A stretch of DNA of 49,168 nucleotides from Escherichia phage 4A7. The stretch lies in the sequence record NC_049946.1. The stretch is one strand, 5' to 3'. Below the pieces are notes generated by a model. It did no database searches. It saw nothing but the letters and a program-made list of their open reading frames with translations, and was not told the origin of the DNA. Both the position numbers and the translations under genes were made by a program. Below, piece after piece: positions 20,875-46,751 of this stretch (the first letter of the stretch is position 1; each line of letters starts with the position of its first letter).

Positions 20875-21300
20875 ATGGAATTACAGGACTGGCGAAAAGA
20901 ACCTCGTAAAAACTATTCGAATGAATTCAAACTTCGTATGGTGGAACTGGCATCACAACCTGGAGCTTGTGTTGCACAGATTGCACGTGAAAATGGCGTC
21001 AATGATAATGTTATTTTCAAATGGCTCAGGCTCTGGCAGAACGAAGGGCGTGTTTCGCGGCGTCTTCCGGTAACGACCTCTTCTGACACTGGCGTTGAAT
21101 TATTACCTGTAGAAATAACGCCGGATGAGCAGAAAGAACCTGTGGCGGCCATTGCGCCGTCTTTATCCACTTCCACTCAGACCAGAGTCAGTGCCAGTTC
21201 CTGCAAGGTGGAATTCCGTCACGGTAACATGACGCTGGAAAATCCATCGCCAGAGCTGCTCACAGTGTTGATCCGTGAACTGACCGGGAGGGGAAGATGA
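20875..21300 (+). CDS. tnpA: IS66-family accessory protein TnpA (Orf1)
   Basis: First ORF of the IS66-type triad; HTH-like N-terminus. Confidence 0.8.
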   Translation: MELQDWRKEPRKNYSNEFKLRMVELASQPGACVAQIARENGVNDNVIFKWLRLWQNEGRVSRRLPVTTSSDTGVELLPVEITPDEQKEPVAAIAPSLSTSTQTRVSASSCKVEFRHGNMTLENPSPELLTVLIRELTGRGR

Positions 21301-21647
21301 TCTCACTCCCATCAGGTACCCGTATCTGGCTCGTTGCCGGCGTTACCGATATGCGTAAATCCTTCAACGGACTGGGAGAACAGGTACAACATGTGCTGAA
21401 TGATAATCCCTTCTCCGGTCACCTGTTTATCTTCCGTGGCCGACGGGGTGACACCGTCAAAATTCTTTGGGCTGATGCTGATGGTCTGTGCCTGTTCACC
21501 AAACGCCTGGAGGAAGGCCAGTTTATCTGGCCTGCGGTACGTGACGGCAAGGTATCCATTACCCGCTCGCAACTGGCAATGCTCCTCGATAAGCTGGACT
21601 GGCGTCAGCCAAAAACATCCAGCCGTAACTCACTGACAATGTTGTAA
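21297..21647 (+). CDS. tnpB: IS66-family Orf2 (TnpB)
   Basis: 116-aa ORF overlapping tnpA (ATGA), typical of IS66 orf2. Confidence 0.8.
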   Translation: MISLPSGTRIWLVAGVTDMRKSFNGLGEQVQHVLNDNPFSGHLFIFRGRRGDTVKILWADADGLCLFTKRLEEGQFIWPAVRDGKVSITRSQLAMLLDKLDWRQPKTSSRNSLTML

Positions 21648-21677
21648 AAAACTCCTGACCGCATTATAAAAACGGTC

Positions 21678-23291
21678 ATGAGTCAGAAATACCTCATTCG
21701 CATCGCAGAGCTGGAAAGGTTGCTCTCTGAGCAGGCTGAAGCCCTCCGTCAGAAAGACCAGCAACTGAGTCTGGTTGAAGAGACGGAAGCCTTCCTGCGC
21801 TCTGCACTGACACGTGCCGAAGAAAAGATCGAAGAAGATGAACGGGAAATAGAACATCTGCGGGCTCAGATAGAAAAACTGCGCCGGATGCTGTTCGGTA
21901 CCCGTTCTGAAAAACTGCGTCGTGAAGTTGAACTGGCTGAGGCTCTGCTGAAACAACGTGAACAGGACAGCGATCGTTACAGTGGGCGGGAAGACGATCC
22001 TCAGGTTCCCCGCCAGTTGCGACAGTCGCGCCATCGTCGTCCGTTACCGGCACACCTTCCCCGTGAAATACACCGCCTGGAGCCAGAAGAAAGCTGTTGC
22101 CCGGAGTGTGGCGGTGAGCTGGATTATCTGGGGGAAGTCAGCGCTGAACAGCTGGAACTGGTGAGCAGTGCCCTGAAAGTGATCCGCACAGAACGGGTAA
22201 AAAAAGCCTGTACAAAATGTGACTGTATTGTTGAAGCACCGGCGCCGTCCCGCCCGATAGAGCGTGGTATCGCGGGCCCCGGATTACTTGCCCGCGTGTT
22301 AACGGGAAAATACTGCGAACATCTGCCACTGTATCGTCAGAGTGAAATCTTTGCCCGCCAGGGTGTCGAACTGAGCCGGGCCTTACTCTCCAACTGGGTT
22401 GACGCGTGCTGCCAGTTAATGACACCGGTGAATGATGCCCTGTACCGTTATGTAATGAATACCCGCAAGGTTCACACTGATGACACACCGGTAAAGGTAC
22501 TGGCACCGGGTCAGAAAAAGGCGAAAACAGGGCGTATCTGGACGTATGTCCGGGATGATCGCAATGTGGGTTCGTCATCTCCTCCAGCGGTCTGGTTCGC
22601 GTACTCGCCGAACCGGCAGGGGAAACACCCGGAGCAACACCTCCGCCCCTTCCGGGGTATCCTGCAGGCGGATGCGTTCACAGGTTACGACAGGTTGTTC
22701 AGTGCAGAACGTGAAGGTGGTGCACTGACAGAAGTTGCGTGCTGGGCCCATGCCCGGCGAAAAATCCACGATGTATACATCAGCAGCAAAAGTGCGACGG
22801 CAGAAGAAGCCCTGAAGCGAATCAGTGAACTGTACGCCATCGAGGATGAAATACGGGGATTACCGGAGTCAGAGCGTCTTGCCGTCAGGCAGCAGCGAAG
22901 CAAAGTGTTACTGACGTCGCTGCATGAATGGATGGTGGAGAAGAATGGTACGCTGTCGAAAAAATCCAGACTGGGCGAAGCGTTCAGCTATGTACTGAAT
23001 CAGTGGGATGCCCTCTGTTATTACAGTGATGACGGTCTGGCGGAGGCGGATAATAATGCTGCGGAAAGAGCGCTTCGTGCAGTCTGTCTCGGAAAGAAAA
23101 ACTTTATGTTCTTTGGCAGCGATCACGGCGGCGAGCGTGGAGCACTGTTGTACGGGCTGATCGGCACCTGCCGTCTGAACGGTATCGATCCGGAAGCGTA
23201 TCTGCGCCATATCCTGAGCGTACTGCCGGAATGGCCTTCCAACCGAGTTGACGAACTCCTGCCATGGAACGTAGTACTCACCAATAAATAA
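21678..23291 (+). CDS. tnpC: IS66-family transposase (TnpC)
   Basis: 537 aa with an N-terminal coiled coil/leucine zipper, a CxxC...CxxC zinc motif and a DDE-type core; position and size typical of IS66 TnpC. Confidence 0.85.
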   Translation: MSQKYLIRIAELERLLSEQAEALRQKDQQLSLVEETEAFLRSALTRAEEKIEEDEREIEHLRAQIEKLRRMLFGTRSEKLRREVELAEALLKQREQDSDRYSGREDDPQVPRQLRQSRHRRPLPAHLPREIHRLEPEESCCPECGGELDYLGEVSAEQLELVSSALKVIRTERVKKACTKCDCIVEAPAPSRPIERGIAGPGLLARVLTGKYCEHLPLYRQSEIFARQGVELSRALLSNWVDACCQLMTPVNDALYRYVMNTRKVHTDDTPVKVLAPGQKKAKTGRIWTYVRDDRNVGSSSPPAVWFAYSPNRQGKHPEQHLRPFRGILQADAFTGYDRLFSAEREGGALTEVACWAHARRKIHDVYISSKSATAEEALKRISELYAIEDEIRGLPESERLAVRQQRSKVLLTSLHEWMVEKNGTLSKKSRLGEAFSYVLNQWDALCYYSDDGLAEADNNAAERALRAVCLGKKNFMFFGSDHGGERGALLYGLIGTCRLNGIDPEAYLRHILSVLPEWPSNRVDELLPWNVVLTNK

Positions 23292-24134: not shown

Positions 24135-24992
24135 CTAATTGGGTGATAACAGATCCTGTGTATGGGAGTTTCCCTTTTTGCGTGCGTTGATGCTGGTAAC
24201 GGCAAACGTCATGATGAACAAAACCGCGAATAAGACGACAATCGTCGGAGCTGGTGCGCTGTCGATAAAAAAGGACAACCAGACACCAGTCATTGACACT
24301 ATTACCGATATGCCAGTCGCCAGTAGGAGCGCAATATGAAAGCGTTGTGTCAGGAGTACCGCAATGGCGCCAGGCGCAATGAGCAGAGAAATGGAGAGAA
24401 TGATACCTACCGCTTTCAGCGTCGCCACAATGGTCAGAGAGACCATGCACAGCAGCCCATAATGCAGCCATCTCGTATGCAAACCGCTTACCTGCGCCTG
24501 TTGATAATCAAAGCTGAACAGCAAAAAATCCCGCCATTTTACGCTAATAACAAGTGTAACCAGCCCGGCAATAATCATCGTCTGGATTATATCGCCGATG
24601 GTTATCCCGAGCATGTCGCCGAAAAGAATATGGTCAAGATGTACGTCTGGTTTGACTGCAATATACAAGATCAGACCTGCGGCAAACATGCCAGAAAAAA
24701 CAATCCCCATCACTGTATCTTGCTTGATTCGGCTGTTGTCTTTCAGGTATCCCGTCGCCACCGCGCAGAATACTCCGGCGACGAATGCCCCTGTAGCCAA
24801 AGGTAACCCCAGAATCCAGGCAAGCACGATGCCAGGAAAAACCGCATGACTCATCGCGTCACCCATCAGTGCCCAACCTTTCAGGACCAGAAAGACCGAC
24901 AGCAGCGCACAGGGTATGGAAACTACCAGTGAAATCAGCAGTGCGTGACTCATAAAGGTGAACTGCAGTGGCTCCAGTAATAATGCCATCAT
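24135..24992 (-). CDS. sitD: Mn/Fe ABC transporter permease SitD
   Basis: 285-aa polytopic membrane protein, last gene of the sitABCD-type operon, overlapping sitC. Confidence 0.85.
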   Translation of the reverse strand: MMALLLEPLQFTFMSHALLISLVVSIPCALLSVFLVLKGWALMGDAMSHAVFPGIVLAWILGLPLATGAFVAGVFCAVATGYLKDNSRIKQDTVMGIVFSGMFAAGLILYIAVKPDVHLDHILFGDMLGITIGDIIQTMIIAGLVTLVISVKWRDFLLFSFDYQQAQVSGLHTRWLHYGLLCMVSLTIVATLKAVGIILSISLLIAPGAIAVLLTQRFHIALLLATGISVIVSMTGVWLSFFIDSAPAPTIVVLFAVLFIMTFAVTSINARKKGNSHTQDLLSPN

Positions 24993-25846
24993 GAGCGATC
25001 CTCCAGCGCCTTATGCGCACGCCGACGATTTGCCAAAAGCCCATGGGTGGGCGCAAAGACAAATGCTAAAAGAAACAGCAGTGTCTGCGCCACCACGATG
25101 ATTCCACCTGTCGCGCCGTCCAGAAAGTAACTGACCCACGCGCCGAGGAAACTGGTTACACTGCCAATAGTTACAGCAATCATGAGCAGGCGGGGAAAAC
25201 GATCGGTTAACAACCATGCTGTTGCACCGGGAGTCACCACCAGACAGATCACCAGAAAGGCACCAACCGTTTGCAGCGCCGCAACGGTCGAAACCGACAG
25301 CAGGGTGAAGAAGAGGAGTTTTAATCTGCCCGGATGCAATCCAATAGCACGGGCGTGATTCTCGTCGAAAAAGGTCACCATAAGATCTTTCCATTTGAAA
25401 AAAAGCACGATGATCGAGAGAATGCCAATGATAGTGAGTTGCAGGATATCCGCCGGATCGATTGCCAGAATATTGCCCAGGACGATGGTCTGAATGTTCA
25501 CAGATGTCGGGTTCAATGACACCATAAACAGCCCCAGGCCAAAAAAGGACGAGAAGATCAGACCGATGATGGCATCTTCTTTTAAGCGGGTGCGTTGGTT
25601 AAGAAACAGCATGCTGCCCGCAGCCAGTCCGCCGGAAAAGAAGGCTCCCAGAGAAAACGGAAGCCCCAGCATATATGCCCCCGCAACACCCGGGACAATA
25701 GAGTGCGACAACGCATCGCCAATCAGCGACCAGCCTTTTAGCATCAGATAGCATGACAGGAAAGCGCAGAGACCGCCGACCATCGCCGAGACCCACATCG
25801 CATTGAGCATATATTCATAGCTGAAGGGTTCCAGTAGCACGTTCAT
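24989..25846 (-). CDS. sitC: Mn/Fe ABC transporter permease SitC
   Basis: 285-aa polytopic membrane protein, paralogous to sitD; overlaps sitB. Confidence 0.85.
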
Positions 25847-26670
25847 CTTTCTTCCCTCTGCACCGCTGACGGTCGATGAGCCACAAAAGGGCGTTCATCG
25901 TCAGTAATAATGCTTTCTTCCGAGCCGTTAAGTGTGACATGGCGCAGTACGCCGCTAAAAGCCAGCTCTAGGTTCTCGGCTGTAAAAGTGGTGTCTGTCG
26001 GCCCGCTTGCCAGGACGGTGCCTTTGACCATGACCGTATAATCGCAAAATGTCGTGACGGATCCGAGATTGTGTGTTGAGACAAGCATCGTTTTGCCTTC
26101 CGCGCGTAACTCCCTCAACAGGCTGATGATTTTGGCTTCGGTTTTCACATCAACGCCAGTAAAAGGTTCATCCAGCAGGATCACATCACCCTGCTGTGCA
26201 ATCGCTCTCGCCAGAAAGACGCGTTTCTTTTGTCCACCGGAAAGCTCGCCGATTTGTCGATGGCGAAAATTCACCATATCGACACGTTCCAGCGCATCGG
26301 TGACAATTTGACGATCCCTCTTTTTGGCGATACGCAACATACCCATATGCCCATAGCGGCCCATCATCACCACATCTTCCACCAGTACAGGAAATGACCA
26401 GTCAACCTCTTCTGACTGAGGGACGTAGGCAACCAGGTTTTTCTGTAACGCCTGTCGCGTGGGAATACCCAGAACAGATATCTTTCCGCTGGTCAGACGC
26501 ACAAATCCCATAATCGCTTTAAACAACGTCGATTTTCCGGAACCGTTTACCCCAACCAGAGCGGCAATAGATCCACTTGGTACTGTGAAGGATGCATCGC
26601 GCAGTGCTGTGTGCCCGTTATGCCAGGTGACAGCAACATCATTAACGACAATGCCTGCAGATTGCATCAT
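25843..26670 (-). CDS. sitB: Mn/Fe ABC transporter ATP-binding protein SitB
   Basis: Walker [13 protein letters not shown] signature LSGGQKKR, Walker B ILLDEP. Confidence 0.9.
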
Positions 26671-27584
26671 TATTTCTCCCTTTTCCCGGCTTTAATTCCC
26701 TGTACCAGCGTACTGGTAGTAACCTTAAGAAGGTCGATATACGTCGGTACCGGGCCGTTTTCTGTGCTCAGGGAATCGACATAGAGCACACCGCCGTAGT
26801 GTGCGCCGGTTTCACGCGCAACCTGACGCGCTGGTTTATCGGAAATCGTACTCTCGCTAAAGACTGCCGGGATATGATTTTTCTTAACTATATCAACAAC
26901 CTTACGTACCTGCTGCGGTGTTCCTTGTTGATCGGCATTAATCGGCCACAGATAAAGCTCTTTTAGCCCCAAATCGCGTGCGAGATAAGAAAAAGCCCCT
27001 TCACTGGTGACCATCCATCGCTGATTCTCAGGGAGTTCCGTAATCTGCTTACGCAGGGGGGCAAGGGTTTGGGTAATCTTGGCTTTATAAGTATCGGCAT
27101 TGCGTTGGTAGGTTTGTGCATTTGCCGGATCGTATTTTATCAACGCATCACGAATATTATCGACGTAAATCAGAGCATTATCTGGCGACATCCATGCATG
27201 GGGGTTAGGTTTGCCCTCATAGGGTCCTTCGGTGATCCCTACAGGCGTCACACCCGAAGAGACAATTACTTCTGGAACCCCATTGAGATGCTGGTAAAAG
27301 CGTTGGAACCACAATTCCAGATTCATACCATTGGCGAGAATCAGTTGTGCCCCCTGCGCACGTTTAATATCGCCAGGGGTAGGCTGATACTCATGAATTT
27401 CTGCACCAGGCTTGGTTATGGATGAGACTTCTGCAGCATCTCCCGCCACGTTTTTGGCCATATCCGCGATGATGGTAAATGTTGTAATGACCTTAAATTT
27501 TTCAGTTGCACTTGCCTGAAATGCGATCGAGCAGGTGAGTGCGAGGCCCCCCAAGAGCATGGTTACTTTTTTTATTGAGCGCAT
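26670..27584 (-). CDS. sitA: periplasmic Mn/Fe-binding protein SitA
   Basis: 304 aa with signal peptide; cluster-9 (MntC/YfeA/SitA-type) solute-binding protein; first gene of the operon. Confidence 0.9.
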
Positions 27585-27616
27585 AATTTAGTACCTATAG
27601 TGAGCAAAATTAGAAC

Positions 27617-27638
27617 AAACATAGCAACGGCTATGTTT
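27617..27638. promoter_or_regulatory. MntR operator-like palindrome in the sitA promoter
   Basis: Perfect 9-bp inverted repeat with 4-bp spacer, AAACATAGC-AACG-GCTATGTTT, 33-54 bp upstream of the sitA start. Confidence 0.6.
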
Positions 27639-27660
27639 TATAGCATAACCTATACAGAAT

Positions 27661-27679
27661 GAAAATGATTATCATTAAC
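27661..27679. promoter_or_regulatory. Fur box
   Basis: GAAAATGATTATCATTAAC matches the Fur consensus GATAATGATAATCATTATC at about 16 of 19 positions; upstream of sitA. Confidence 0.65.
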
Positions 27680-27687
27680 ATCTTTGA

Positions 27688-28017
27688 GGCCCAAAACAGG
27701 GATTAGTTTGTTTCCTGCTGGATGAAAGGACTCTTGGGATAGCACATGCCGCACGAAGAGCAGCATTACATGATGTTTTGTCGAATGAGCTACGAATCCT
27801 GATAGAAATACGAAACAAGCTAGCACATGGACAATGGATCTATCCCTTCAATAATGAAGGAAATACTGTGGACCCTGATAAATATAAATTAATCAATAAA
27901 GAAAACTTGCAGTCACTCCAATTCAAATATTCATTAGCACAGCATTTAGTTGACGCTGTACATGATTTGGTTGTAAGTCCTACGACATTCGAACGAGATT
28001 TCGAAAGCCATTTTTAA
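27688..28017 (+). pseudogene. 5'-truncated gene remnant (open frame without a canonical start)
   Basis: AT-rich reading frame open from the stop at 27685 to 28017 with no ATG near its 5' end (the listed 79-aa ORF starts at TTG); it abuts the sit promoter. Confidence 0.35.
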
Positions 28018-28499
28018 AAATTATATCAAGTACGAACAAACTTAGTGACAAAAGACTACGAAAAATATAAAACAATTTTAGTATTAAGTAGAGAGAAATT
28101 TCGTTCTGCTAGGACGCAGCAATAGGTTCATGAGATTCTCTGATACTTGTTACCTTAGTAAGCCTTAAATTTTTAAAAATTCTTTTACGTCCACTCCTCG
28201 CTCATAACAGGCATTAACTACATTTATCTTCATTGGCTATGCAAGTCGTAATAAAAGGTGGGACAAAACTGAGACACATAAGCTCTCACAAAGGTCTGCA
28301 AGGCCTCACATGTATTGAGATGTTAATAAAATGTAGACTTGTAATTTTGATATAAATGGTAGATAAAACCTTTCCCCAAAATAAAAACGAACGTCAATGA
28401 AATCAAATGGTTGAATAAAGTTGATTTTGGCTAATAAAAAAACAATAAAATAATTTTTATTATTAAATATCAATGACTTAAACTTAATGTTTTTATATA

Positions 28500-28664
28500 C
28501 TGCTGCGCCATATGGGTTGGACTGAAGCGGCTGACCTGATTGTTAAAGGTATGGAAGGCGCAATCAACGCCAAGACCGTAACCTATGACTTCGAACGTCT
28601 GATGGAAGGCGCTAAACTGCTGAAATGTTCAGAGTTTGGTGATGCGATCATCAAGAATATGTAA
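28500..28664 (+). other. icd: phage-borne 3' end of icd (isocitrate dehydrogenase), the core of attP
   Basis: In-frame translation [54 protein letters not shown] matches the Icd C-terminus as recalled. e14 and phage 21 integrate into icd and carry a replacement 3' end. Confidence 0.85.
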
Positions 28665-28687
28665 TCACTACATGTGTTAAATATTGA

Positions 28688-28715
28688 AACGGGCGTATAA
28701 CACGCCCGTTGTTTT
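28688..28715 (+). terminator. intrinsic terminator after the icd 3' end
   Basis: Stem AACGGGCG/CGCCCGTT with loop TATAACA, followed by GTTTT. Confidence 0.7.
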
Positions 28716-28730
28716 ATGATGATGTAAAAT

Positions 28731-28767
28731 CTTCCCCAAAACTTTCCCCAAAACCCTTCCCCAAAAC
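28731..28767. repeat. three tandem 12-bp direct repeats YTTCCCCAAAAC (candidate integrase arm-type sites, P' arm)
   Basis: CTTCCCCAAAAC at 28731, TTTCCCCAAAAC at 28743, CTTCCCCAAAAC at 28756; a fourth copy TTTCCCCAAAA lies at 28371-28381 on the other side of the icd core. Confidence 0.45.
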
Positions 28768-28777
28768 TGGCTATTTT

Positions 28778-29920
28778 CTATGCTGTTTTGATATCTACGA
28801 TAATCCAGTCTTTACCACGATCATCATTGTATCGGTCGGTCATTTTTCTGGATTTATGGCCTAACAACTTTTGCGTATCCAGACCCTGTTCCCGATATAA
28901 CCGTTCTGACAGAGATCGCTGCTCATGAAATGTGGGCGCAGTTCCTTGCTCCCATTTTATGCCACATTTTTCCCTGGCCTTTTTAAAAGCCGTTGTCAGA
29001 GTATTCGCAGAAACCTGGTCTCCTCTGTTTGCTTGAGAGGTTGTGTGACGGTAATGGACCAGATATTTACTAACAACAGCATCCCTGCACTGAGATATAA
29101 CTTCACGAAGGGTAATATTCAGAGCATCGCATTTCAGGTTAAGCGGAATAGCAAGTTTTGAACCGGTTTTTTCCTGAGTAATGTGCAACATGTCGTCCCA
29201 GATATCAGAGAATTTCAAATTGCAGATATCGCCTAAACGTTGTCCAGTGACAAGAGCAAGTAGCATCCCGCATTTTAAATAGGGCTGCCGTCTGCTTACG
29301 CTGTCAAATATTGCCTGCCATTCGGGCAGTGATAATCTTTGGCGGTTTACTCGATTTCGCGGTTGTTTTGTTGCCTGCGCTGGGTTAAATCCTGGCGGAA
29401 CATGTCCTGCGTGTTGTGCTTCTTTGAAGACGTCGATTAACACCATTCTCACGACTTGCGCCATCCTGTTATGACCTTCAGCCTTTACAGCATCAATTAT
29501 TTCGGCAATATCAAGTGCGGTAATATCCTTGAGGTGTTGCATTCCACAATGCTCACGGAAAAGACGAATGGGTTTGCCTTTTTGCCGATAGGAGTTGGGT
29601 CTTAGTTCATTATGTTGCAGCCTGTCCTCCTGGATAGAAATATATTTATCAAGCCATTCTGTCACCGTAATGTCTGAGCGCCTGCCTTTCATTCTTTCCA
29701 GACGCTCATTGACGCTTAATATTTGTCGGGTACGTTGTTCAGCAATAATGGTATTTGCTTCAGTAGCAACTTGTTTTGCTTCATTCTCATCAGTTCCTAA
29801 GCTATGAAAACGACCGGATAGTGGATGTTTGTATTGCCAATATACCTTTCCGGTTCGCTTATCTAATTTGCAATATAAATTGGGTATAGAGATTTTGTGA
29901 GATCGGGGTCTAGCAGCCAT
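28778..29920 (-). CDS. int: tyrosine integrase (lambda Int family, phage 21 / e14 IntE-like)
   Basis: 380 aa with a C-terminal catalytic domain (R...HxxR...Y, LLGHKSRKMTDRY); adjacent to the icd-containing attP and overlapped by xis. Confidence 0.9.
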   Translation of the reverse strand: MAARPRSHKISIPNLYCKLDKRTGKVYWQYKHPLSGRFHSLGTDENEAKQVATEANTIIAEQRTRQILSVNERLERMKGRRSDITVTEWLDKYISIQEDRLQHNELRPNSYRQKGKPIRLFREHCGMQHLKDITALDIAEIIDAVKAEGHNRMAQVVRMVLIDVFKEAQHAGHVPPGFNPAQATKQPRNRVNRQRLSLPEWQAIFDSVSRRQPYLKCGMLLALVTGQRLGDICNLKFSDIWDDMLHITQEKTGSKLAIPLNLKCDALNITLREVISQCRDAVVSKYLVHYRHTTSQANRGDQVSANTLTTAFKKAREKCGIKWEQGTAPTFHEQRSLSERLYREQGLDTQKLLGHKSRKMTDRYNDDRGKDWIIVDIKTA

Positions 29921-30146
29921 CAGCGATTATCCGTTGGAGTTTTGGGTTTGCGTTTATTGGGAGTTGCGGTTCTGCAAGCGTTCCTACAAAACGGGAATTT
30001 CGGTCAATCATCCAGTAGCGACCAACTTTTATAGCGGGTGGGGCCATCATTTTCCCTTGCGCGTATTTTTTCAGAACTCGCTCACTTGGTGCTAAGTCCC
30101 CAAATTCTTCTTTAGCCCAGTCCTGTAAAGTGATTAGTCGAGACAT
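29910..30146 (-). CDS. xis: excisionase
   Basis: 78-aa ORF overlapping the int start; LTLQDW N-terminus, typical of Xis-family winged-helix proteins. Confidence 0.7.
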   Translation of the reverse strand: MSRLITLQDWAKEEFGDLAPSERVLKKYAQGKMMAPPAIKVGRYWMIDRNSRFVGTLAEPQLPINANPKLQRIIADGC

Positions 30147-30285
30147 TTGTCCTCCTCTTAGCTGCTGAGGGAGTTTGTGACCGATATATCTGACATGATA
30201 TTAAGCTCATGGCAGGTACATCTCTTGACTGGTCATAGAGATAAATTTAATGCTGAGAAATGCAGTATTGAATTTATCAAATTTT

Positions 30286-30525
30286 CTATTTCCTGCGTAT
30301 GGCACGTAACTTCTTAATGTGTTCTGCCGTTTCGATCTCTTCTGCTATCCGATCTGCATCAGCTTTATTCACAGGTTCAAAGTCATGATTAAAGCGGAAC
30401 ATGCTGGCGATACATGTTCTGCCTTTTCGGATGTAGTGAACTTTGTTGTGGGTAGAACGCAGGATTTTGCAGGGAGTGCCGTGGTGGTCGACGTACCAGG
30501 TGTTAGGAAAAATGATTCTGAACAT
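30286..30525 (-). CDS. hypothetical protein
   Basis: 79-aa ORF in the leftward early operon; no recognised homologue. Confidence 0.4.
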   Translation of the reverse strand: MFRIIFPNTWYVDHHGTPCKILRSTHNKVHYIRKGRTCIASMFRFNHDFEPVNKADADRIAEEIETAEHIKKLRAIRRK

Positions 30526-30572
30526 TTTTACACCTCAGTTGGACGATGTTGAAATTTGCTGCTTTGAGGCCA

Positions 30573-30791
30573 TCACAGTCCCCATTGTTTGTTCTTAAGT
30601 TCGATCTCCTCCTGGCAACTTGCACAAGTCCGACAACCCTGAACGGCCAGGCGTCTTCGTTCATCTATCGGATCGCCACACTCACAACAATGAGTGGCAG
30701 ATATAGCCTGGTGGTTCAGGCGGCGCATTTTTATTGCTGTGTTGCGCTGTAATTCTTCAATTTCTGATGCTGAATCAATGATGTCTGCCAT
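30573..30791 (-). CDS. TraR/DksA-family C4 zinc-finger protein
   Basis: 72 aa with CxxC(17)CxxC (CCECGDPI...CRTCASC); a common lambdoid early gene. Confidence 0.7.
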   Translation of the reverse strand: MADIIDSASEIEELQRNTAIKMRRLNHQAISATHCCECGDPIDERRRLAVQGCRTCASCQEEIELKNKQWGL

Positions 30792-30889
30792 CTTTCATTA
30801 ATCCCTGAATTGTTGGTTAATACGCTTGAGGGTGAATGCGAATAATAAAAAAGGAGCCTGTAGCTCCATGATGATTTTATTTTTCATGT

Positions 30890-31171
30890 TCACCGTTCCT
30901 TAAAGACGCCGTTTAACATGCCGATCGCCAGGCTTAAATGAGTCGGTGTGAATCCCATCAGCGTTACCGTTTCGCGGTGCTTCTTCAGTACGCTACGGCA
31001 AATGTCATCGACGTTTTTATCCGGAAACTGCTGTCTGGCTTTTTTGATTTCATAATTAGCCTGACGGGCAATACTGCGAAGGGCGTTTTCTTGCTGAGGT
31101 GTCATTGAACAAGTCCCATGTCGGCAAGCATAAGCACACAGAATATGAAGCCCGCTGCCAGAAAAATGCAT
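30890..31171 (-). CDS. hypothetical protein (true start possibly the internal Met at 31108)
   Basis: ORF in the early-left operon; no recognised homologue. Confidence 0.35.
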   Translation of the reverse strand: MHFSGSGLHILCAYACRHGTCSMTPQQENALRSIARQANYEIKKARQQFPDKNVDDICRSVLKKHRETVTLMGFTPTHLSLAIGMLNGVFKER

Positions 31172-39224: not shown

Positions 39225-39557
39225 ATGAACCCTTATATTTATCTTGGTGGTGCAATACTTGCAGAGGTCATTGGTACAACCTTAATGAAGTTTTCAGAAG
39301 GTTTTACACGGTTATGGCCATCTGTTGGTACAATTATTTGTTATTGTGCATCATTCTGGTTATTAGCTCAGACGCTGGCTTATATACCTACAGGGATTGC
39401 TTATGCTATCTGGTCAGGAGTCGGTATTGTCCTGATTAGCTTACTATCATGGGGATTTTTCGGCCAACGGTTGGACCTGCCAGCCATTATAGGCATGATG
39501 TTGATTTGTGCCGGTGTGTTGGTTATTAATTTATTGTCACGAAGCACACCACATTAA
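39225..39557 (+). CDS. emrE: small multidrug resistance efflux transporter EmrE
   Basis: 110 aa, matches E. coli EmrE as recalled (MNPYIYLGGAILAEVIGTTLMKFSEGFTRLWPSVGTIICYCASFWLLAQTLAYIPTGIAYAIWSGVGIVLISLLSWGFFGQRLDLPAIIGMMLICAGVL...); emrE is DLP12-associated in K-12. Confidence 0.9.
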   Translation: MNPYIYLGGAILAEVIGTTLMKFSEGFTRLWPSVGTIICYCASFWLLAQTLAYIPTGIAYAIWSGVGIVLISLLSWGFFGQRLDLPAIIGMMLICAGVLVINLLSRSTPH

Positions 39558-39812: not shown

Positions 39813-41339
39813 ATGAAAAAAGCCATAGCATATATGCGATTTTCATCACCAGGTCAGATGTCTGGTGATTCATTAAACCGCCAGAGAAGGCTTATTACTG
39901 AATGGCTAAAGGTAAATAGTGATTATTACCTTGATACCGTAACGTATGAAGATTTGGGGTTAAGCGCATTCAATGGAAAGCATGCACAATCAGGAGCTTT
40001 TTCGGAATTTTTAGATGCTATAGAACATGGTTACATATTGCCAGGGACTACATTGTTAGTTGAAAGTCTGGACAGACTTTCAAGAGAAAAAGTCGGTGAA
40101 GCGATTGAGCGTCTGAAATTGATTTTGAATCACGGTATTGATGTTATAACTCTTTGCGATAATACAGTCTATAATATAGACTCATTGAATGAGCCATATT
40201 CATTAATAAAAGCCATACTTATAGCACAAAGGGCAAATGAAGAAAGCGAGATAAAGTCAAGTCGGGTTAAATTATCATGGAAGAAAAAACGGCAGGATGC
40301 ACTGGAATCAGGCACGATTATGACGGCGTCTTGTCCGAGATGGCTCTCATTGGATGACAAAAGAACAGCTTTTATTCCAGACCCCGACAGGGTGAAAACG
40401 ATTGAGCTAATTTTTAAACTCAGGATGGAAAGGCGATCATTGAATGCAATAGCTAAGTATTTAAATGATCATGCTGTAAAAAATTTTTCAGGAAAAGAAA
40501 GTGCATGGGGGCCTTCTGTAATTGAAAAATTATTAGCGAATAAAGCTCTGATAGGTATATGCGTACCTTCATATCGTGCAAGAGGGAAAGGGATAAGTGA
40601 AATCGCTGGCTATTATCCCAGAGTCATATCAGATGATTTGTTTTACGCTGTACAGGAAATTCGGTTGGCACCTTTTGGTATTAGCAATAGTAGCAAGAAT
40701 CCTATGCTAATAAATCTACTTCGAACAGTTATGAAGTGTGAGGCTTGTGGTAATACCATGATTGTTCATGCGGTATCTGGACGTTTGCATGGCTATTATG
40801 TTTGTCCGATGAGAAGATTACATCGATGTGACAGGCCATCAATAAAAAGAGATTTGGTTGATTATAATATCATTAATGAATTGCTTTTTAATTGTAGCAA
40901 AATTCAACCAGTTGAAAACAAGAAAGATGCTAATGAAACTTTAGAGTTAAAAATTATTGAGCTTCAGATGAAAATTAATAATTTAATCGTTGCATTGTCT
41001 GTCGCGCCTGAAGTTACCGCTATAGCAGAGAAAATAAGACTATTAGATAAGGAATTACGAAGGGCTTCGGTATCATTAAAAACTTTGAAGAGTAAAGGGG
41101 TGAGTTCACTTGGTGATTTTCATGCTATTGATTTAACCAGTAAAAATGGGCGAGAGCTATGTCGTACACTTGCCTATAAAATATTCGAAAAAATTATAAT
41201 TAATACAGATAATAAAACCTGTGATATCTATTTTATGAATGGCATTGTTTTTAAACACTATCCTTTAATGAAAGTAATATCCGCCCAGCAGGCGATAAGT
41301 ACTCTTAAATATATGGTTGATGGTGAGGTTTATTTTTGA
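39813..41339 (+). CDS. ybcK: large serine recombinase (YbcK-like)
   Basis: 508 aa; N-terminal resolvase/invertase catalytic domain (AIAYMRFSSPGQ...SLNRQ), central recombinase domain, Cys-rich zinc ribbon (CEACGN...CPMRRLHRC) and C-terminal coiled coil; AT-rich. Confidence 0.85.
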   Translation: MKKAIAYMRFSSPGQMSGDSLNRQRRLITEWLKVNSDYYLDTVTYEDLGLSAFNGKHAQSGAFSEFLDAIEHGYILPGTTLLVESLDRLSREKVGEAIERLKLILNHGIDVITLCDNTVYNIDSLNEPYSLIKAILIAQRANEESEIKSSRVKLSWKKKRQDALESGTIMTASCPRWLSLDDKRTAFIPDPDRVKTIELIFKLRMERRSLNAIAKYLNDHAVKNFSGKESAWGPSVIEKLLANKALIGICVPSYRARGKGISEIAGYYPRVISDDLFYAVQEIRLAPFGISNSSKNPMLINLLRTVMKCEACGNTMIVHAVSGRLHGYYVCPMRRLHRCDRPSIKRDLVDYNIINELLFNCSKIQPVENKKDANETLELKIIELQMKINNLIVALSVAPEVTAIAEKIRLLDKELRRASVSLKTLKSKGVSSLGDFHAIDLTSKNGRELCRTLAYKIFEKIIINTDNKTCDIYFMNGIVFKHYPLMKVISAQQAISTLKYMVDGEVYF

Positions 41340-45241: not shown

Positions 45242-46324
45242 TTAGAACTGATAAACCAGACCTACAGCGACGATGTCGTCGGTATCAATACCAGCTGTTT
45301 TGGTAAACTTACTATCGTCAATTAAGTTGATTTTGTAATCAACAAAAGTGGACATGTTTTTATTAAAGTAGTAAGTAGCACCGACATCGACATACTTGAC
45401 TAAGTCTCGGTCACCATGAACACCAAGGTCTTTACCTTTTGACTGAAGGTAAGCAACAGATGGTCGCAGACCGAAGTCAAACTGATATTGTGCTACTGCT
45501 TCAAAGTTTTGTGCTTTGTTTGCAATATGGTTATTACCAAAAACGGTCATATTCTGAGTTTCAGAATATGTGGTAGCCAGATAGATATTGTTCGCATCAT
45601 ATTTCAGGCCTGCAGCCCATACTTCCGCATTTTTGCCGGAGGCATTGAATTTGCTCTTACCATAGGCGACCTGACCGTCAGTGCGATCTGATTTAGCATA
45701 GGTTGCACCCACGCCGAATCCTTCATACTCATAAGTAGTGGAGAAACCGAAACCATCACCATTGACTTCAGTTACGTCAGTGCGGTCATTTTTACCCTGA
45801 TACTGAGCAGCAAAGTTCAGGCCATCGACCAGACCAAAGAAGTCGTTGTTACGATAAGTTGCAACACCAGTAGTGCGACCAGTCATGAACACATCTGTTT
45901 GGGTCCAGGTATCACCACCGAATTCTGGCAGGACGTCAGTCCACGCACCGATGTCGTATGCTACACCGTAGTTACGGCCGTAATCGATTGAGCCGTAATC
46001 ACCAAATTTCAGGCCTGCAAATGCAAGACGGGTTTTGTCTTTGGAAGAACCTTGAGATTCAGCACGGTTGCCTTTGAATTCATATTCCCACTGACCGAAA
46101 CCAGTCAGTTGATCGTTGATTTGGGTTTCACCTTTGAAGCCAAGACGGGCATAAGTAGTATCACCATCATCTGCATCATTAGAGGAGAAGTAGTGCTTGG
46201 CATTAACTTTCCCGTATAGATCCAGCTTGTTACTGTCTTTATTATAAATTTCAGCTGCCTGAGCAGACATCGCCATCAGTACTGATGCAGCTACAGCAGA
46301 AATTGCCACTGTTAATTTTTTCAT
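45242..46324 (-). CDS. nmpC: OmpC/OmpF-family general porin (NmpC / Lc-like phage porin)
   Basis: 360 aa; signal peptide [23 protein letters not shown], porin motifs ([35 protein letters not shown]) and a C-terminal Phe. Confidence 0.9.
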
Positions 46325-46751
46325 TGTACGCCCTTTTTTTTGAACTATTATTAAAAAATGATGTCACTGCGCGATAAATATTCATCTAATCAATGCGATT
46401 ATTTCAAGATGTAAGTTTTAGTTTCTCATTTAATTTGTGAAGTAGATCTCTATTTTTATCTGAACCTTTTCTATCTAATCCTATTCATGGCTCTTGTTTG
46501 AACGAAAATAAATCTATTAGCTAATTTATATTAATGGCACTTATTTATAAGCGCTCTATAATTCTTTAGCTTAATTTAAACAAACTAAAAATAACATCGG
46601 AAATTATTCATTGGTTATTTGTTGAAGTTTTCTTATGTATTTGTGGTGGTGTTTTGAACACTCGGTGGCATTCTCACAAATATCATTTAGTAGTTTACGT
46701 ACGTAAAAAATTGGTTATGCTGTTAAGAGTGGTTACTTCGTCACACAGCTT

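Follow-up and report, generated by a model that had tools for sequence, protein, structure and literature searches.

A phage 21-type attP carrying its own 3' end of icd in the genome of Escherichia phage 4A7

The attachment region and its genomic surroundings

The window analysed here, a stretch of 49,168 nucleotides from Escherichia phage 4A7 (NC_049946.1), contains a compact array which, in the unintegrated order, consists of a P arm, a core with the 3' end of the isocitrate dehydrogenase gene (icd) and its terminator, three repeats, and the integrase gene int. The latter (28778-29920, minus strand; its end at 28778 lies 10 bases past the last repeat) encodes a tyrosine integrase with an N-terminal arm-binding domain, as judged from its Pfam matches (Arm-DNA-bind_1, PF09003, at 1.8e-28, and Phage_integrase at 8.9e-24) and from its matches to the integrases of phage 21 and lambda: 377 of 380 residues (99%) are identical to phage 21 Int, and the protein aligns over its full length with crystal structures of lambda Int (e.g. 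1Z1B, E=2e-55). Its domain make-up is that expected of a heterobivalent integrase of the lambda type. The start of int is overlapped by the excisionase gene xis (29910-30146, minus strand), whose product matches the Pfam family Exc at 26.5 bits, above the cut-off, and whose counterparts in phages 21 and 3W carry an excisionase annotation.

To the left of int, bases 28501-28664 (plus strand) encode residues 363-416 of isocitrate dehydrogenase (Icd) and the stop codon. That this icd sequence is in frame had been proposed in the initial annotation and is borne out by the translation and by the junctions in lysogens; that it might fail to align in frame with host icd, which was named there as a possible refutation, did not come about. 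Its extent is slightly smaller than the 28500-28664 and about 55 codons given at the time, because the host has ATG at the place of the first 'L' codon, which is thus excluded: the homology starts at 28501 and covers the last 54 codons. A 50-residue open reading frame starting at an internal ATG of the fragment matches the C-terminal end of the Pfam family Iso_dh, under the curated cut-off because it is so short. The icd-like terminator hairpin which had been described after the fragment is present as an intrinsic terminator of the icd type (28688-28716, plus strand), with a G+C-rich stem of 9 bp (stem-loop at 28688-28710) and a T run, the stem being followed by GTTTTAT.

The 601 compared bases of this region are about 100% identical to Escherichia phage 3W, and phages 1W and Lambda_4C10 show 99.8% identity to the att region. 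According to its gene table, 3W is lambdoid and arranged in virion order, running from Nu1 to Rz; an att-int-xis-exo-bet-gam block stands in mid-genome and sitABCD directly to the left of att. The window is colinear with it and contains no host genes, so that the site is read as an intact attP, not as a prophage junction, and the window itself is a complete lambdoid phage genome in the same order. The opposite reading, under which the window would be a piece of chromosome and the site one end of a prophage (attL or attR) or the border of two prophages in tandem, draws on E. coli FXCREC028 (NZ_CM135822) and two other chromosomes, where an attP-like junction (sitABCD, P arm, icd fragment, int) points to tandem 21-type prophages at icd. 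However, the sequence of such a junction would equal attP anyway, and colinearity with 3W from Nu1 to Rz makes this reading exceedingly improbable.

The sitABCD operon, a complete iron/manganese ABC transporter operon (24135-27584, minus strand), is cargo lying immediately to the left of this intact attP, which brings it alongside attR in lysogens. The stretch 27585-28220, which separates sitA from the conserved P arm, is AT-rich and holds a single open reading frame of 79 residues (27778-28017); its minus strand has a terminator-like hairpin at 27638-27617. Three consecutive open reading frames of 141, 116, and 537 residues (20875-23291, plus strand), labelled 'mobile element protein' in 3W, directly follow the side tail fibre gene and form a pattern that agrees with an IS66-family insertion sequence. 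Further cargo annotated in 3W, falling at about 39225-39557, 39813-41339, and 45242-46385 of the window (3W coordinates minus 54), comprises an EmrE-like SMR efflux protein, YbcK, and an OmpD/NmpC-like porin gene, the latter as two CDSs overlapping slightly at their ends.

The small open reading frames in or near the P arm (28306-28473 on the minus strand, 28233-28355, and the one at 27778-28017) have no Pfam match and are not demonstrably genes. A scan of 27000-31000 against Rfam returned just two sub-threshold chance matches, to tpke11 (20.8 bits) and to a plant miRNA, and a promoter scan found 5 matches where 7.7 were expected, no excess over shuffles, including a weak match at 28473-28501 reading into the icd fragment. 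The sRNA svsR of the related icd prophage NC-SV was considered as a candidate at the att site and rejected, as it maps to the cI gene.

Crossover and restoration of icd in lysogens

The genomes of two lysogens, E. coli A13 and DA33135, place the prophage in icd. At attL of A13, an intact and normally annotated icd is followed by int; at attR, sitC-sitB-sitA are followed by an icd remnant and ycgX. DA33135 has the same junctions, with sitA adjoining attR, so the layout in these two lysogens is icd-attL-int ... sitABCD-attR-ycgX, where sitD lies outside the stretches compared. The mapping of attL and attR in a lysogen had been put forward in the initial annotation as a check, and integration at another locus as the outcome that would overturn it; both lysogens map to icd. 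The attB site rebuilt from the host sides of attL and attR, 1200 bases in length, is 100% identical and uninterrupted in the unoccupied strain GPEC1186, and a contiguous attB site is found in 2898 of 5426 complete E. coli genomes. The integration locus is thereby fixed for a phage family which is widespread, with int and the P' arm in 1679 of these 5426 genomes (~31%), and which often carries sitABCD.

In A13 and DA33135, attL equals attP at every polymorphic site from 28511 rightwards, and attR consists of the phage P arm up to 28500 and of host alleles from 28511 onward. These polymorphisms place the crossover inside the decamer TGCTGCGCCA (28501-28510, plus strand), at whose first base identity to host icd starts; the alignment with host icd that had been suggested for defining the crossover thus confines it to 10 bp. 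The short overlap region, identical in attP and attB, would lie within this decamer. Two candidate core-type sites, TTTATATAC (28492-28500) and CCATATGGG (28508-28516), share an inverted ATAT element and are exactly 7 bp apart, with TGCTGCG (28501-28507) between them; from their symmetry alone, we propose TTTATATAC, TGCTGCG, and CCATATGGG as C, predicted overlap, and C', respectively. From the crossover, the block common to attP and attB runs for about 216 bp, through the stop codon and to about 28716, where it ends with the terminator, whose sequence is identical in host attR.

In lysogens, icd is annotated as an intact 1251-bp gene, completed at attL by the phage alleles; the host Icd C-terminus is replaced by the phage version, as the initial annotation had it. 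The fragment is thus a pseudogene in the free phage and turns into the functional icd 3' end in the lysogen. The one or two differences from K-12 Icd that had been anticipated in the phage-borne tail turn out to be two, D398E and E414K (residue numbers by arithmetic from the 416-residue Icd). The tail of K-12 Icd itself derives from e14; against icdC, the remnant in K-12, the phage copy shows E410D and E414K. The displaced remnant in A13 encodes the very same tail as the phage copy, and so does phage 21, so that Icd is unchanged in the A13 host; up to two residue changes on lysogenisation are thus predicted, depending on the host allele.

Of the 154 columns of the fragment, 19 vary in a set of five diverged 21-type phages, with one amino-acid change only, which indicates purifying selection; for a nominal pseudogene, this is expected if the fragment is expressed after integration. 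The terminator shows a similar pattern in comparison to e14: the stems ACGGGCGT...ACGCCCGT of the 21-type and ACGGGAGCG...CGCTCCCGT of e14 (about 1397-1419) differ by paired changes which keep the stem, pointing to selection on structure. These patterns bear on a reading of the fragment as the passive leftover of a past imprecise excision, without present function. It is true that the fragment has no ribosome-binding site and is a pseudogene by the annotation of phage 21; however, the crossover lies at its 5' edge, so that it is the working icd end in every lysogen, and neither the scarcity of amino-acid changes nor the retained hairpin agrees with a loss of function. A mere leftover is thus hardly conceivable. 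As part of an attP that restores icd, the fragment also accounts for the short 'isocitrate dehydrogenase' open reading frame which pipelines call in these phages.

Two database records differ from this layout. Phage D2 (OM475427) was rejected as a comparison because its sequence appears to be chimeric: from the P dodecamer to the core, the P arm is replaced by about 130 bp of host icd, and a run of Ns falls in the P' repeats. Reads of attL and of attP have probably been joined in its assembly. The 'phage' record vB_EcoM-689R6 (ON470584) contains all 1251 bp of icd, after which come a hypothetical gene, a DUF262 gene, and an integrase; it represents a prophage together with host flank, and may stand for a third kind of element at icd.

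The crossover decamer itself exists in two silent variants. The window, phage 21, and K-12 icd have TGCTGCGCCA, which assigns the window to the CTG class, and Lambda_2E9 has TGTTACGCCA, a silent change of Leu CTG to TTA; a dozen records which match at the same 92.6% identity as Lambda_2E9 may carry TGTTACGCCA as well. Both forms of these two bases also occur in E. coli icd, with TGTTACGCCA in roughly 40% of typable alleles. Junctions of either variant were counted by concatenated 35-mers (25 bases of flank plus the decamer each), the genomes holding both junctions being given by places minus records. The combination of a CTG host-left junction with a CTG P-arm junction is present in about 961 genomes and that of TTA with TTA in about 161, against about 4 genomes with host-left TTA and P-arm CTG and about 2 with host-left CTG and P-arm TTA. 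On the host side, the four equations yield about 2575 junctions with CTG and 1853 with TTA; on the phage side, they yield about 966 with CTG and 359 with TTA. Among complete genomes, with kinship and phylogroup ignored, attL and attR thus have the same variant in about 1122 lysogens and different ones in about 6. This matching, which may be a new observation, fits a requirement for identity in the overlap, given the near absence of mixed attL/attR pairs; the same association could be produced by clonal descent and a phylogroup-restricted host range. That the two variable bases lie in the strand-exchange overlap, and that a silent icd allele decides which 21-type phages lysogenise a host, is a tentative idea and rather the less probable one; if true, it would define two phage-host compatibility classes, which may arise from phage-host conflict.

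Candidate arm-type and IHF sites

Three tandem dodecamers (28731-28767, plus strand) lie between the core and the 3' end of int, where the initial annotation had located them: CTTCCCCAAAAC (28731-28742), TTTCCCCAAAAC (28743-28754), and, after the one-base spacer C28755, CTTCCCCAAAAC again (28756-28767). They are candidates for the arm-type Int sites P'1-P'3. The fourth copy which had been placed at 28371-28381 is indeed present on the other side of the core, except that it runs to 28382 and ends in T, not C: this P-arm dodecamer, TTTCCCCAAAAT (28371-28382, plus strand), is placed 129 bp to the left of the crossover decamer and is invariant in five diverged 21-type attPs; it is a candidate arm-type Int site comparable to lambda P1. 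The exact ten-base motif TTCCCCAAAA has 4 copies in the 49 kb, all on the plus strand and all within 400 bp, where 0.13 would be expected; none of 100 shuffles reaches 4. For the looser pattern of the initial annotation, with one mismatch, the count is not significant (4 found, 1.42 expected, 6 of 100 shuffles), and it is the clustering of the repeats, rather than this count, that carries weight. In the record of phage 21, the repeats are annotated as 'attP 3 subsites' P1P2P3 with the consensus YYTTCCCCAAAA; repeats of this type, three on the P' side of the core and a single one on the P side, are a feature of the phage 21-type module and are found here in the same numbers.

The main argument for reading the repeats as arm sites comes from e14, whose attP was reconstructed from attR and attL of K-12. 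Counted from the first base of the crossover decamer, TTCCCCAAAA occurs here at -129, +231, +243, and +256, and the e14 motif TTATCAAAA at -128, +233, +244, and +257; the motif has thus been replaced at four positions together, alongside a diverged integrase, a pattern to be expected of arm sites. With this comparison and the lambda-type arm-binding domain of Int, the proposal of the initial annotation that the repeats are plausible integrase arm sites has gained ground. A different assignment, which accepts the attP and its icd fragment but takes the TTCCCCAAAA repeats for sites of another protein (Xis or a host factor) or for slippage repeats without a role, can invoke the fact that the repeats are no better conserved than their flanks: the whole of 28711-28780 is invariant among 21-type phages, so that conservation within this family cannot single the repeats out. 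In addition, the GenBank note on phage 21 calls them simply 'attP subsites', and their binding by Int is a prediction. However, the four copies are co-oriented and split one plus three across the core, as in lambda; in e14, motif and Int differ together; and the arm-binding domain of Int needs such sites. An assignment to other proteins or to slippage is therefore very unlikely. A literature search on the arm sites of phage 21 found no paper. Work by Wang and colleagues in 1997 is said to put the minimal phage 21 attP at 366-418 bp, with the outer dodecamers as its limits, which would fit the 397 bp from 28371 to 28767.

The P arm further contains two perfect matches to the IHF consensus. The first, AATCAAATGGTTG (28401-28413, plus strand), is one of 4 perfect matches to WATCAANNNNTTR in the 49-kb window and is an H1-like candidate; an IHF consensus at -100 is common to the phage described here, phage 21, and e14. 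The second, TATCAATGACTTA (28468-28480, plus strand), is an H2-like candidate with weaker support, because its counterpart has one mismatch in phage 21 and e14 has no match there; the difference from phage 21 results from about 11 substitutions in 30 bp of the P arm to the left of the core. Between the core and the P' sites (about 230 bp), no IHF site of the H' type is found, even with one mismatch. The P arm is probably bent by IHF. An inverted arm-like sequence, TTAGCCAAAA (28425-28434, minus strand), has two mismatches and would be in the place of a P2 site, which in lambda is likewise inverted relative to P1; its match is weak and is not mirrored by the e14 motif at the counterpart position in e14, for which reasons it was set aside, and its equivalence to P2 is doubtful.

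The whole is almost certainly the attP of a phage 21-type integration module, working like lambda attP with one known twist. The N-terminal domain of Int would bind the TTCCCCAAAA arm sites, of which the P arm has one and the P' arm three, while the core would be bound by the central and catalytic domains; the resulting complex recombines with attB in host icd, within TGCTGCGCCA, at codons 363-366. The twist follows from the place of this cut, 164 bases short of the end of an important gene: the same 164 bases and the icd terminator are present in the phage as well, where they separate the core from the P' arm sites. In the lysogen, icd reads from host DNA into the phage copy and ends at the phage-borne terminator, which may also shield the convergent int gene; the original host icd 3' end remains at attR as a pseudogene, and excision, which requires Int and Xis, brings the original gene back.

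Comparison with known systems

The integration of phage 21 and e14 into icd, with its 3' end replaced, has been a textbook case since about 1989-1997. The icd-targeting attP is in this sense already known: it is described for both elements and annotated in GenBank for phage 21, where the record carries the same features as found here, in agreement with the initial annotation, which had assigned the module to the strategy of e14 and phage 21. OL657228 annotates an ICDH-like pseudogene, a terminator, three attP subsites, a tyrosine integrase, and an excisionase at homologous positions; M61865, deposited in 1991, is entitled 'Bacteriophage 21 isocitrate dehydrogenase (icd) pseudogene, excisionase (xis), and integrase (int) genes'; a further record, AF017626, comprises icd and int from a natural isolate. 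The genome of phage 21 has been announced by Feiss et al. (2022; PMC9119081), and icd is a well-known prophage site, the 'phage 21 attachment site', at which attP carries a replacement sequence that keeps the gene functional, with an identity block of up to ~250 bp (PMC12803456, PMC10111431, PMC7192596, PMC6379469).

Phage 21 (OL657228, M61865; Campbell laboratory) is 93% identical to the phage described here in attP DNA and has the same gene order, with sitA to the left of attP; the icd-encoded peptide, the terminator stem-loop, the four dodecamers, and the crossover decamer are all identical, and the icd fragment differs at about 9 silent positions. Between sitA and the equivalent of 28220, phage 21 has a 759-bp open reading frame, in a stretch where its sequence differs from that of the window, and the remaining genome is a different lambdoid mosaic (genus Bievrevirus rather than Jouyvirus).

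The cryptic prophage e14 of E. coli K-12 (intE, xisE, icdC) shares its attB and its crossover decamer with the phage described here, brings along 165 bp of replacement icd with a terminator, and shows the same one-plus-three geometry of arm sites, with the IHF consensus at -100. However, its Int is only 60% identical, its P arm is about 50% identical, its arm motif is TTATCAAAA instead of TTCCCCAAAA, its Icd tail differs at two residues, and its cargo (C0293, ymfD, ymfE, lit) lies between int and attL. The phage described here thus shares mechanism and target with e14, but is not of the e14 specificity class.

Lambda attP (P1-H1-P2-H2-COC'-H'-P'1-3, then int) is served by a homologous Int and has the order P1-H1-H2-core in common with the attP described here, as well as a tandem of three co-oriented P' sites close to the stop codon of int and ahead of it. 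These lie at +228 to +262 from the core here and at +53 to +83 in lambda, a shift of about 175 bp, because the gene fragment and the terminator lie in between. The arm motifs are different; lambda attB is intergenic, with only the 15-bp core in common with attP, and the H' consensus of lambda has no counterpart here.

Integrases that act at the 3' parts of tRNA and tmRNA genes follow the same strategy: their attP supplies a replacement for everything between the crossover and the 3' end of the targeted gene, which is thereby restored (PMC10111431). In contrast to these, the target here is protein-coding, and the identity block, at about 216 bp, is unusually long; the replacement is therefore a coding sequence, evolving under codon-level selection.
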